Shown here piece after piece: positions 36,123 through 40,541 of a stretch of DNA of 64,000 nucleotides. A program made the position numbers and the translations under genes. Every line of letters begins with the position of its first letter. Within the stretch, counting starts at the first letter, position 1. The DNA lies in the NCBI RefSeq assembly GCF_056712565.1, contig NZ_CM160072.1; one strand, given 5' to 3'. The notes below the pieces were generated by a model, which was not told the origin of the DNA, did no database searches, and worked only from the letters and a program-made list of their open reading frames with translations.

Positions 36123-36668
36123 TCACGTCAGTGCTCCGGTTTCATCAGGGTCTGCGCACCGGATGTGGCCGGTCAGGGTCATGGGCTGAGCGGTGAGTGA
36201 TTGCATCATCCAGCAGGCTTTGTGCTCCTCCGGGATGGGATAAGGTGCCGGATAGCCTTTGTCTCCGGCACAGGGTTCGAACCCATGTCGGGGGTAATAG
36301 GTGGCGTGGCCGAGAACAAAAACCGTCTGGCAGCCCATCAACCTCAGGTGCTCGATGCCAGTGCGTATCAACCGTCCTCCCACGCCCATCCCTTGGTATT
36401 CCGGTATGAAAGCCAGGGGAGCGAGGATGTGCATCAACGGTGAATCCATTTCTCCTTTGAAGGTTGCCCGGGTAAATAAAATATGCCCGACGGCTTTGCC
36501 TTCATACCGGGCTAGCAGCGATAACGCGGGGCGCGCGCTTTCATCCTCAAGTAAAGAGGCCACTAAATCGGCTTCTTTGCCGAAGCCAAATGCGCGGGTT
36601 TCGACTTCCCGGATATCACTGGCATCACTTTTATCTGTGATATGAAAAGTGAAGTGGTGTACTGTCAT
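36123..36668 (-). CDS. yjhQ: GNAT-family acetyltransferase (putative antitoxin partner of TopAI)
   Basis: 181-aa ORF with GNAT motifs (…YQGMGVGGRLI…). Confidence 0.8.
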   Translation of the reverse strand: MTVHHFTFHITDKSDASDIREVETRAFGFGKEADLVASLLEDESARPALSLLARYEGKAVGHILFTRATFKGEMDSPLMHILAPLAFIPEYQGMGVGGRLIRTGIEHLRLMGCQTVFVLGHATYYPRHGFEPCAGDKGYPAPYPIPEEHKACWMMQSLTAQPMTLTGHIRCADPDETGALT

Positions 36669-36679
36669 AGAAACTCTCC

Positions 36680-36936
36680 TTAGCGATTATCGAGCTGAGC
36701 GCGAACTTTATTCAGCTCGGTGGTGTTGATTCGATAGGGCTGGCCATTGACGGACTTGATAAGTTTTTGGTTTTGAGTTTTTTGAAGACGGCGAGCGTGC
36801 AGTCGGTCAGCAACAGCCCTTCGCGGCTGTAGCATTCAACGGAAGTGACGCGGCCTGAAGAATCGCGGACGTGCGCAATACGTCTACCTTTAGCGAGAAC
36901 GTGTAAGGTATGTTGTTCCTGACGGGATAAATTCAT
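36680..36936 (-). pseudogene. topAI: topAI/yjhX-family topoisomerase I inhibitor toxin gene with a frameshift in an A-run
   Basis: ATG 36936 to stop 36680 is 257 nt (not a multiple of 3); annotated frame ends early (…[23 protein letters not shown]), while a +1 shift at ACCAAAAAC (about 36765) restores …[28 protein letters not shown] ending just before the yjhQ RBS. Confidence 0.7.
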
Positions 36937-37897
36937 ACTGAAGAACCTATTTAATCATCATGTGCAAAACGTGCAAACACACCGCGGTGTCCGCATTCGA
37001 TTTCGGCGCATTGATAATCAGTCCGGCCTGAAAAGGTCGGGGAACTGATTATCGGATGATTACATTCTCCAGCATCAAAGCCTCGGGTTGAGTTGAAAGG
37101 TATTTACGGAGCGAATATTAACACGTAGTTATAGGAGGGATATGTTTCAGTAGAAAAAGTGTGATGTACTTTGGAAATTGAATGCCAACCCATTTACTGG
37201 AAAAGGCAGATGACACTGACGAATGCATGTTGAAGTACGCCTGAAATGGCCTCATCGGCTTTTCCCTTCGGGAGATTATTCTCCTTTTGTTAAATCCAGA
37301 ACATAAATATGCTCACCCATATTCGATGCTTGAAAAATTGAAGCCAATCCTGATAAGTAATTTTTTTGAAAGGGTATTTTCCGGATTCACACCGGCTTTG
37401 ATGAGTGAAAAACCGTTCTCTTTTATTCAGTCAATCGTGGCGGTAATTGCTTCAATTGCATATCCCTGGCGAGCATAAGCGGGACTGATGGTATAGCCGA
37501 GCCAAAACACATCGCATTGCTGACGTAAATAGATATCACCAATCAAAACCTGCGTCATTTGTTGACAATGGCCAATTGAATATCGCGAGCAAGTGTAAGA
37601 ACTCCCAGCAAGACCCTGTAAATAATTCTGTGTAACTGCCCACGATTAAAGGTGGCCGCTCAGGCGGTCACCGTATTCGATAATAAATGGGTCTGGAAAA
37701 AGTGCAGCATCTGGCAGCGTAATGCAGGTAGCCCAGTTCAACTCTCACTACCAGTATGATCCCAAGTTCGAGCGCGGAATGTATCTGTATGAGCATCGTC
37801 GCTGTTTCAATAACATCATCGACTACTGTAACTCACTTTGCTATCACGGTAAGTTGCAGCCTAAAAGAGGGATGGAAAAAGGACGATTTTCCCCGCA

Positions 37898-38914
37898 ATG
37901 GGATATTTACATATTGATGGTAGAGGCATGAAGCCAAATGGAGGGAGCCGTCATAACCCTCTTGAAGCTGAAACAATAGCAGCATGGCTGGTGGCACATA
38001 AGGATGATATAGAGCGCCATTACGGGGAACCACTGTACAAAGTTGTTGGTGTTGTGACGCCATTTTCGGCGCAGGTTAATGCTATCAAAATGTCATTGCG
38101 TAAGCTGGAAATTAATGGCAAAGACGAGCAGGGTTTACTGACAGTGGGGACTGTGCACTCCTTGCAGGGGGCGGAAAGGGCGATTGTTCTCTTTTCTCCT
38201 GTCTACTCAAAACATGAAGATGGCAGGTTTCTTGATAGCAACAGCACTATCCTCAATGTTGCTGTCTCACGCGCTAAAGATAGTTTTCTGGTATTTGGCG
38301 ATATGGACCTTATCGAGATGCAGCCCGCATTTTCGCCGCGAGGGTTATTGGCAAAATATCTCTTTTCTTCAGATAATAATGCGTTGCAATTTGAGTTTCA
38401 GAAACGACAGGATTTAATTTCCGCACATACACAAATTTCAACGCTGCATGGTGTGGAGCAGCATGATGAATTTTTGAACAAGACTCTTGCCGGAGCTCAA
38501 AAGAAAATAACGATTATTTCCCCTTGGTTATCCTGGCAAAAAGTGGAGCAAACGGGATTTCTGGCATCAATGGCTTTGGCCCGTTCCCGGGGCATTGATA
38601 TTACCGTGGTGACGGATAAAAACTGCAATATAGCGCATGTCGATGATGATAAGCGTCAGGAGAAACAACATCTGCTGAATGATGCTGTTGAAAAGCTCAA
38701 TAAGATGGGTATCGCTACGAAATTGGTTAATCGTGTTCACAGCAAAATTGTGATTGAGGATGAAGAACTGCTGTGTGTCGGATCTTTTAACTGGTTCAGT
38801 GCTACACGGGAAGATAAGTATCAACGATACGATACGTCTTTGGTGTACCGTGGTGAAGGCGTAAAAAATGAAATAAAGGCAATATATGGTAGTCTGGATC
38901 AACGTCAGCTTTAA
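37898..38914 (+). CDS. yjhR: Helicase-remnant protein (C-terminal SF1 helicase domain plus PLD-like domain)
   Basis: 338-aa ORF; the preceding ORF 37722-37931 encodes an adjoining helicase segment in another frame, so this is a frameshifted fragment of a larger gene. Confidence 0.65.
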
Positions 38915-39496
38915 ATGTGATGAGCCGTTCATGATACAGGAGTAGTAAAGGGCATATTTTACCAATGTTAAGGCGACTTTCCGTTTTATTGTGAGTCGCC
39001 TTTCCTGATTATAAATCTTATTGTTTACCTAATCATTTTCCTTTGCATAATGCGCCTGGGATTAATGGCGGGTGCTTTTAGGAATGAAAGAAAATGCAAG
39101 CAATAATATAATAATGGCCTAATTTCTTTGAACATCATTAAGCATATCATCATCGTCTATTTGCCAGAATCCGTCGACTTATAATCGCCAGAACGGCATA
39201 TCAGGACGGTGCTGCGAACGCTGTGGCCCAAAACGTTCCAGTAAACTGTGTAGATGTTCGTAGATTTCCGAGCCATAATCGAAAAGGCGCGGATGTCTAT
39301 TAAGGCATCCGGCTAATCTGTAAGCAATAACAACGGTTTATGCGGTGCGCGTTTTTCACCCTTGTGCCAGATTATTATATTGGCAATTGCCTGCTGTTCG
39401 AGCCCGCAAGTGAAGAGATATTACCTTGATCTCATTTGTTTTTTGTTGTCTACTCTGAGAACGAACAAGGACATCCCCCATGAATAAACTCCCCGC

Positions 39497-40477
39497 TCAC
39501 CTTTCGCGCCAAAACTGCAAAATTGCTTCTACAAATCTGTCAGAAATAATCCCCCGACGGGCTGCAGTGCTGAAATGACTGCTTCGCAGTGCCGTCGTCC
39601 AGTTCTCCGGTGACCGGTACGCTGAACCGTAATATCCCGTGCTTAAATCGTCCGGGTCTTCATCAGGCGCGTTCGTCAGTCCTCTTTCACCTTGTTGCTG
39701 GAAGTCGACGAAAATAATATTGGCTAAAACATTATTTTGATAATTGCCATAAATAGCTTCATACGAATGCGGGAAATTTTCTTTCCAGTACCAGGTGGTA
39801 TCGCCGCAAAACCACGGCGCGTCAGTAATATTATTAAGCTGAGAATGGTATTGTTTTAGATCCCTACGAAAGGCTTCAACCATATGATTAAAGTGTTGAG
39901 GGTGTGACGCGTAGTCACTGGTCATTAAGTCAAATTCGCCTTGCATCCAGCATGCGCCGAGGAATTTGTTCTGCGGATTTTTTGCCAGTGCGGCTCGCGT
40001 TCTGCTGACTAAATCCTGGTACAGCGGAGTATCCGTTCCCCAACGACAAGCATCATGGCTGGCTCCGTGCCGTTCTGAATATGTCCCTTCGCTGCCCGCG
40101 GTAAAAGCCGATCCGCCACGGCAACACGGAACGATAAGAATCCCTGCATTATCAGGAATGAAGGGCAGTAATTTCCGTGCAATATGCAGTGCCTGGCCAA
40201 CGGTGCCGTACTGTGTTTGATGATTCGTTGCCAGAGGATGGTGATAACCCTGCATATCCTGAACATCGTGTGGGCAGTGAGTCAGTGGAATAATGTCGTT
40301 AAAGTGACATGGCGGGCCTCCGGGATGCGTATGCGCAAATCTCGCTAATTGTTTAATTCTGGGATGAGGCGCATCTTCCCTGTCCGGTAATGGCAGTCCT
40401 TCGCCATACGCCATGGCATTAGACTGACCAGCAACGGTAAGAACATAGTAATAATCGGGCGATATTATTGCGTTCAT
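39497..40477 (-). CDS. nanS: 9-O-acetyl-N-acetylneuraminate esterase
   Basis: Start MNAIISPDYYYVLTVAGQSNAMAYGEG...; SGNH-type esterase. Confidence 0.85.
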   Translation of the reverse strand: MNAIISPDYYYVLTVAGQSNAMAYGEGLPLPDREDAPHPRIKQLARFAHTHPGGPPCHFNDIIPLTHCPHDVQDMQGYHHPLATNHQTQYGTVGQALHIARKLLPFIPDNAGILIVPCCRGGSAFTAGSEGTYSERHGASHDACRWGTDTPLYQDLVSRTRAALAKNPQNKFLGACWMQGEFDLMTSDYASHPQHFNHMVEAFRRDLKQYHSQLNNITDAPWFCGDTTWYWKENFPHSYEAIYGNYQNNVLANIIFVDFQQQGERGLTNAPDEDPDDLSTGYYGSAYRSPENWTTALRSSHFSTAARRGIISDRFVEAILQFWRER

Positions 40478-40541
40478 ATAAATTTCGCGTAATTGAAATG
40501 ACAAATTGATAGCAGGGCCCCTTTACCGGGGCCCTGAAGCG

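Follow-up and report, generated by a model that had tools for sequence, protein, structure and literature searches.

yjhR of Escherichia coli as the probable remnant of a type II Mokosh defence gene, truncated at an IS256-family relic and then frameshifted

The yjhR locus and its two reading frames

The window analysed here is a 64,000-nucleotide stretch of E. coli chromosome, in which 20000-44000 has 100% identity with several strains (e.g., SF-468); its yjhR segment is identical in K-12 derivatives. The gene order is sgcX, yjhP, yjhQ, topAI, a GNAT fragment, yjhR, a restriction-endonuclease fragment, nanS, nanM, nanC, and fimB. RefSeq/PGAP describes positions 37674-38914 as [quoted passage not shown] Two plus-strand open reading frames (ORFs) lie within this feature, in different frames and overlapping by 34 nt: one of 69 aa at 37722-37931 and the annotated YjhR ORF of 338 aa at 37898-38914, the latter equal to residues 834-1171 of the intact 1,171-aa protein discussed below. 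A previous reading made from the letters of the window (here, the sequence-only reading) had named both ORFs, and they are present exactly as it gave them; its start coordinates of 37700 and 37722 do not hold, and true homology to the intact protein begins at 37689.

By blastn, PADLOC, and tblastn, the remnant falls into two plus-strand segments. Segment A (37689-37880, frame +3) holds codons 764-827 of 1,171 and is the start of the RecA2 half of a helicase. The 69-aa ORF begins within it, at the ATG at 37722, and continues out of frame to a stop at 37931. Segment B (37883-38914, frame +2) holds codons 829-1171 plus the stop. The first five codons of the PGAP feature (37674-37688) belong to an IS256-family relic and not to the parent gene, mkoC.

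The 338-aa ORF retains recognizable domains of two kinds. The Pfam family AAA_12, the C-terminal RecA-like half of Upf1-type SF1 helicases, matches residues 15-136 (E=7e-19), and PLDc_2 (PF13091) matches residues 195-300 (E=3e-11, 43.8 bits against a cut-off of 27), together with the PLD active-site motif (PF00614; E=7e-7, 29.4 bits against a cut-off of 21.9). These matches bear out the claim that 37898-38914 encodes C-terminal helicase and PLD-like domains. A motif search on the intact ortholog, mapped onto the window by alignment, places SF1 motif V (TVHSLQGAE, residues 918-926) at 38150-38176 and motif VI (NVAVSRA, residues 953-959) at 38255-38275, both in RecA2 and on the plus strand. The PLD-family nuclease domain occupies 38480-38797 (+), and its HxKxxxxD motif is intact as HSKIVIED at 38738-38761 (+), that is, ORF residues 281-288 and intact-protein residues 1114-1121. 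Thus, a PLD-superfamily domain with its active site is present. Of the helicase halves, Pfam finds AAA_12 alone in the remnant, with no AAA_11 or Walker A; of the motifs of a functional SF1 helicase (I, Ia, II, III, IV, V, and VI), V, VI, and the region before them remain.

The upstream frame, including the 69-aa ORF, has no Pfam or NCBIfam match and is recognized by the PADLOC MkoC profile (PDLC03924) only, at profile positions 739-809 (E=1.7e-32). For the 338-aa ORF, the match in the same profile spans positions 812-1135 of 1,136 (E=3.8e-139). The two frames are adjoining pieces of one protein, and the proposal that 37722-37931 encodes an adjoining helicase segment holds, since its profile positions directly precede those of the longer ORF. 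Together, the pieces cover positions 739-1135 only, short of the near full-length coverage of a type II Mokosh protein, and contain neither Walker A nor Walker B of the ATP-binding site.

A crude consensus scan of the plus strand from 37300 to 37898 found no sigma-70-like promoter, and by direct reading the Shine-Dalgarno-like AAGGA nearest to the ATG at 37898 ends 16 nt before it, which is too far. The one terminator-like match is internal to the gene and at the level expected from shuffles. Searches of 36500-39700 for Rfam families and repeats returned no RNA family and short chance repeats only, and a literature search on b4308 found nothing relevant.

Full-length relatives and the parent gene

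A Mokosh system pairs a PLD nuclease with an RNA helicase of the COG1112/Upf1-like kind; type II fuses the two, helicase first (Millman et al., 10.1101/2022.05.11.491447). In that preprint, three cloned Mokosh systems protected E. coli from phages, and mutation of either the ATP-binding site or the PLD active site abolished defence (Millman et al., 10.1101/2022.05.11.491447). A type II protein described in a later preprint is a monomer of 132 kDa, and its defence was narrow, reaching one single-stranded DNA phage only in the panel used (10.1101/2025.07.10.664194). YjhR itself has been linked to Mokosh and described as structurally like PLD6 (Cury et al. preprint, 10.1101/2022.12.12.520048).

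The family to which the remnant belongs is far larger than the annotated ORF. An exhaustive HMMER search, in which the query was a longer relative of 569 aa, puts the typical length at about 1,150-1,190 aa; most of the 150 best relatives considered have 1,100-1,250 aa, and the query aligns with roughly their residues 600-1170 (i.e., their C-terminal halves). A word-indexed protein search masks this state, all of its best 120 matches being shorter than 600 aa and dominated by short partials and pseudogene products. More directly, the same chromosomal locus holds intact copies in other strains. Strain 2013C-4282 carries a 1,171-aa ortholog (WP_106907644.1; calculated mass, 132.3 kDa), followed by the same restriction-endonuclease relic and then nanS, nanM, nanC, and fimB. 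This ortholog is the final gene, at the distal end, of a leuX island of ~25 kb that also has an integrase, a type I restriction-modification system, and toxin-antitoxin modules. Isolate AF16 has a second intact 1,171-aa copy at the yjhR locus (WP_024009495.1), and an E. coli metagenome-assembled contig has a longer yjhR copy beside nanS. The view that yjhR is a fragment of a larger gene is thereby confirmed.

We compared two intact proteins with the MkoC profile, namely WP_106907644.1 from 2013C-4282 and the paralog WP_000344098.1; both match it end to end (positions 1-1135 of 1,136), at 1,464 and 1,689 bits, respectively. Both have the domain order AAA_11/AAA_30, AAA_12, PLDc_2, consistent with a layout in which an N-terminal region is followed by an Upf1-like SF1 helicase (RecA1, which carries Walker A/B, before RecA2) and a PLD-family nuclease forms the C terminus. 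The helicase-then-PLD order, the end-to-end profile match, a mass equal to the reported 132 kDa, and the position of the gene in a tRNA-linked island with other defence genes are all features of type II Mokosh. Based on the profile, the parent gene of the yjhR remnant is identified as the type II Mokosh gene mkoC, which gives a name to the decayed defence or DNA-processing gene that the sequence-only reading had thought likely. The window copy is unlike a type II system in that it keeps residues 764-1171, frameshifted and without the ATP-binding half, and it would be a relic rather than a working system.

Other known proteins resemble the remnant or its parent in part. WP_000344098.1, annotated as "AAA domain-containing protein," is a ~70%-identical E. 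coli MkoC allele that also has 1,171 aa, the same domain order, and a place in a leuX-tRNA island, with 67% protein identity to the remnant over residues 830-1171. It differs in being intact, in belonging to another allele and lineage, and in its neighbours (an HNH endonuclease, a restriction endonuclease, and a PLD/DUF1156/DUF3780 system). Matches to this allele at the DNA level, at 60-80% identity, occur in about 850 of 5,426 complete genomes, and a full-length copy among other defence genes was confirmed in the one strain inspected, Z0117EC0148. Type I Mokosh is matched by the RecA2 part (MkoA, E~1e-18) and the PLD part (MkoB, E=1e-14); however, it consists of two genes and has a Ser/Thr kinase domain, and these scores are far weaker than those of MkoC. 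Among Upf1-like SF1B helicases (Upf1, IGHMBP2/SMUBP-2, DNA2), DNA2 and an RNA helicase give weak alignments to the motif V/VI region, SMUBP-2 aligns with the Walker A region of the intact ortholog, and the IGHMBP2 NCBIfam family matches at E=2.5e-9, but the relationship is distant only (E about 1e-4 against PDB chains). The PDB copy searched held no close homolog and no Mokosh among its solved structures, only distant SF1B helicases. Finally, single-HKD PLD nucleases (Nuc/NucT, Zucchini/PLD6, and DrmC of DISARM) share PLDc_2 and one HxKxxxxD, with weak NucT and DrmC matches; unlike the YjhR domain, which is the C terminus of a helicase fusion, they are free-standing or partners in other systems.

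Could the 338-aa protein instead be complete and conserved, its upstream similarity being coincidental? The many database entries of 320-400 aa might give that impression, but most of these short entries are the same pseudogene or partials from contig ends, the exhaustive search puts the family at about 1,150-1,190 aa, the same locus is occupied by intact orthologs of 1,171 aa, and the upstream frame matches the adjoining MkoC profile positions (E=2e-32, rounded). A variant of this idea, that the frameshift is a sequencing artefact, faces the identical GG in 921 independently assembled complete genomes. Relatives in which a 338-aa product is the whole conserved protein are not what we found; together with the tblastn results given next, these data already refute the idea, and we assign it a wholly negligible probability.

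Two lesions and their population history

The extent of the loss was mapped by tblastn of the two intact 1,171-aa proteins against all 64 kb (E<=10). Only two significant pieces were found: residues 759-832 at 37674-37895 in frame +3, and residues 827/830-1171 at 37877/37886-38911 in frame +2, with E-values of 5e-166 and 0.0 for the two queries, far beyond chance. The second piece, segment B, is 96% identical to the intact ortholog over residues 827-1171. Residues 1-758 have no match beyond chance in 36940-37688 or elsewhere in the window, and within 36940-38914 as a whole the two pieces account for residues 759-1171 and nothing before them. In agreement, blastn against the intact ortholog gives one alignment that starts at 37688 (gene nucleotide ~2289, codon 764), at 97.6% identity, and on the plus strand 37689-38914 matches residues 764-1171 only. 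The break separates the lost Walker A (GPPGTGKT, residues 294-301), motif II (DEAGQ, 697-701), and motif III (GDTEQ, 721-725) from the retained motifs V and VI and HKD. That no intact N-terminal ATPase domain lies upstream had been noticed before; we find Walker A, DEAGQ, and GDTEQ traceless in the whole window.

Immediately before the break lies a minus-strand relic of an IS256-family (ISEc39-like) element, 77 bp long (37612-37688), which comprises the outer end and the last ~14 transposase codons. It was identified by alignment with a near full-length ISEc39-family element (the transposase gene of which is itself frameshifted) and with another relic, together with the annotated surroundings of both. 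Its IS256-family similarity stops at 37688, the exact base where mkoC homology begins. Because the two similarities meet at the break, we infer that the 5' 2,288 nt were lost by a deletion that ran from inside the IS into the gene.

The second lesion is a 1-nt deletion at codon 828 (37881-37882, +), where GGG has become GG (AAAAAGGGACG in the intact state and AAAAAGGACG in the window). This loss of a G is the sole gap in a 1,227-nt alignment with intact orthologs, all of which have GGG at codon 828. The frameshift that was thought to join the two segments is thus a single-G deletion in a GGG run.

The position of the deletion, directly after a run of five A's (G GAA AAA GG), raises the alternative of programmed or tolerated -1 recoding at GAAAAAG, in which slippage of the ribosome or of RNA polymerase would restore a 397-aa product. 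By direct reading, a -1 slip of Lys-tRNA on A AAA A does restore the frame. However, GGG is ancestral (present in all intact orthologs and 665 genomes), and the shift would therefore be a mutation and not a conserved signal. Moreover, the heptamer departs from the canonical X XXY YYZ, because GAA in the P site cannot re-pair; there is no stimulatory structure or Rfam element; and the restored product would still be without the ATPase half. Given these points, we regard recoding as extremely improbable. Recoding or phase variation was also rejected as a candidate in its own right, the unshifted state being ancestral and common, the G run only 3 nt long, and an RNA element absent.

How these lesions are distributed was examined in the same 5,426 complete E. 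coli genomes. The segment around the frameshift is carried by 1,707 of them, with the exact GG 70-mer in 921 and the exact GGG 71-mer in 665, whereas high-identity DNA 5' of the break is present in only about 6. All five truncated alleles in which the 35-nt IS/mkoC junction could be checked have it in identical form; two of these share the allele of the window (K-12 and SF-468-type) and three come from other backgrounds (AVS0285, O55:H7 DEC5E, and the FDAARGOS_1267/EC101 group). Because the junction is shared and the upstream DNA so rare, the truncation has the look of one old event. Being polymorphic, the frameshift is probably later than the truncation, an order that we take from population frequencies rather than from a phylogeny.

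Further lesions are found in other truncated alleles: stops at codon 776 (in two strains) and at codon 981, and insertions of ISEc23, ISEc52, IS1, and IS903B. Segregating sites in six truncated alleles comprise 5 synonymous, 9 missense, and 2 nonsense changes, for an omega of ~0.6 that rests on these 16 sites and six alleles and fits neutrality but also weak constraint. Two intact alleles differ by 61 synonymous and 28 missense changes (omega, 0.13), and the site counts of truncated and intact alleles differ at a Fisher p of 0.009 in this small sample. Constraint on the truncated yjhR appears relaxed; the direction is clear and the sample small. The locus thus has the marks of a pseudogene: truncation and frameshift relative to intact orthologs at the same locus, relaxed constraint, and independent lesions.

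A decayed defence gene beside nanS

In total, the observations outlined above are best explained if a type II Mokosh gene, truncated at an IS256-family relic and then frameshifted, has left only its dead 3' third at 37689-38914, a reading to which we give a probability of roughly 93%. We propose that mkoC/yjhR was originally the last cargo gene of a leuX-tRNA island, beside nanS. A deletion with one end in the IS256-family element and the other at codon 763/764 would then have removed 2,288 nt, comprising the N-terminal region and all of RecA1, and with them the start of the gene and its 5' flank and so, presumably, its promoter. In a second step, in the lineage that includes K-12 and the window, loss of a G at codon 828 would have left the 338-aa ORF, with part of RecA2 and the PLD domain, and the remnant would have drifted neutrally since.

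The remnant is not expected to bind or hydrolyse ATP, and it should therefore act neither as a helicase nor in Mokosh defence. Since Mokosh mutants in the ATP-binding site lose defence, yjhR is almost certainly dead as a defence gene, as judged from its sequence, and we predict that, lacking the ATPase half, it would give no phage protection. The PLD domain is a separate matter and may retain some activity: the 338-aa ORF is intact in the window, with a perfect HKD, and it occurs in hundreds of genomes.

The last point raises the question of whether the truncated product (338 aa, or 397 aa without the frameshift) is still made and kept for a function of its own. Such a product might work alone, as a PLD nuclease that dimerises, or it might modulate the full-length MkoC paralog found in many strains. 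Single-HKD PLD nucleases (e.g., Nuc and Zucchini) act as homodimers, which would suit the former role. HKD and helicase motifs V and VI are intact, the ORF is unbroken in the window, its clusters are large (1,335 and 695 member sequences), and some genomes hold the remnant together with a ~70%-identical full-length paralog. On the other hand, alleles elsewhere have many independent lesions, including nonsense changes at two sites and IS insertions of at least four kinds, and the frameshift itself is polymorphic. The contrast in omega (~0.6 against 0.13 for intact alleles) and the several private missense changes of the window allele, next to only one or two private synonymous changes (the number turns on the treatment of 38737, a site shared with AF16), also argue against it. 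So do the lack of a promoter-like site upstream and the distance between the Shine-Dalgarno sequence and the ATG at 37898, and native folding is unlikely since the fragment begins in the middle of RecA2. We consider a retained function quite improbable. A more specific form, in which a RecA2-PLD stub made by read-through would be a PLD nuclease that dimerises constitutively, or would modulate full-length MkoC as a decoy or dominant-negative partner, we judge very improbable; were it true, it would explain the persistence of the remnant in about a third of E. coli genomes, the paralog being present in ~16%.

With decay of a type II Mokosh gene as the preferred reading, part of the picture was already known, namely, the RefSeq pseudogene flag and the link between YjhR and Mokosh in the 2022 preprint, and the feature is an ordinary pseudogene. 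Only detail is added here: where exactly the break lies, next to its IS256-family relic; the loss of a single G; the intact ancestors at the locus; how frequent each state is in the population; and evidence for neutral decay. The value is mainly housekeeping. K-12 would be without a working Mokosh and should not be counted as carrying one: where defence-system predictors or structural comparisons take K-12 YjhR as "a Mokosh from E. coli K12" (Cury et al.), they deal with residues 834-1171, about 29% of the protein and none of its ATPase. The right references for the yjhR allele are the intact WP_106907644.1 and WP_024009495.1. More generally, we posit that the locus exemplifies how IS-associated deletion ruins defence genes at the end of a tRNA-linked island, which are from then on passive passengers.

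The DNA between yjhR and nanS has a history of its own. At 39151-39397, on the minus strand, lies the relic of a restriction endonuclease (phosphorothioated-DNA-binding), of which the N-terminal ~82 codons remain, as seen from RefSeq annotation of identical DNA and from blastn to AF16. In AF16 this interval contains an intact restriction-endonuclease gene (873 nt) and, adjacent to it, an intact gene for an HNH endonuclease (651 nt); relative to AF16, 667 bp and 626 bp are missing from the window. Based on the intact AF16 genes and these losses, we infer that the yjhR-nanS interval is the wreck of a three-gene defence islet. The relic at 39151-39397 is separate from the Mokosh gene.

Loss of defence genes between yjhR and nanS

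In E. coli AF16, which carries an intact yjhR/mkoC at the same locus, the interval between yjhR and nanS holds a complete gene for a phosphorothioated-DNA-binding restriction endonuclease (873 nt) and an adjoining, intact HNH endonuclease gene (651 nt). The window retains a relic of the former at 39151-39397 (minus strand), corresponding to the first ~82 codons and frameshifted. Two further defence genes, those for the restriction endonuclease and the HNH endonuclease, have thus been deleted in the window, because 667 bp and 626 bp of the AF16 interval are missing from it, with the junctions falling near 39150/39151 and near 39494-39508.

The ORF for the 32-aa small protein YthB (39480-39578, plus strand; K-12 annotation) borders the deleted HNH endonuclease region and runs antisense to nanS at its 3' end. 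nanS itself (39497-40504, minus strand) is an unbroken ORF of 326/335 aa in the window. On identical DNA in K-12-type genomes, PGAP labels it “sialate O-acetylesterase, incomplete, missing C-terminus,” while nanS of ATCC 25922 is annotated as intact; the “incomplete” label is probably an annotation quirk.

Remnants to the left of yjhR

The yjhR truncation is bounded by a 77-bp IS256-family (ISEc39-like) end at 37612-37688. Many E. coli genomes have relics of this end, 60-80 bp long and 88-92% identical, at other sites as well; examples lie close to yafV and beneath or beside djlA. The stretch from topAI to the IS relic contains a GNAT/RimL-like acetyltransferase fragment (37313-37558, minus strand), which has an internal stop in the window (…ITATID*IKENG…); other strains retain an 82-100-aa ORF annotated as “GNAT family N-acetyltransferase.”

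Related modules and the leuX island

The island appears to be made up of related CP4-like modules. A DUF932/JAB (RadC-like)/YeeU antitoxin module at 14156-17070 shares 65-70% identity with the counterpart directly upstream of intact yjhR in E. coli 2013C-4282. In genomes of the SF-468 type (SF-468 being an E. coli strain), this module adjoins Ag43 and a CbtA toxin gene that is truncated.

Because the leuX-tRNA defence island of E. coli Z0117EC0148 (sequence L003, 2680-15221) houses an intact MkoC paralog (~70% identical), leuX is a hotspot for alternative Mokosh alleles. The paralog is accompanied there by genes for an HNH and a restriction endonuclease and by a PLD/DUF1156/DUF3780 “anti-phage-associated” gene set.
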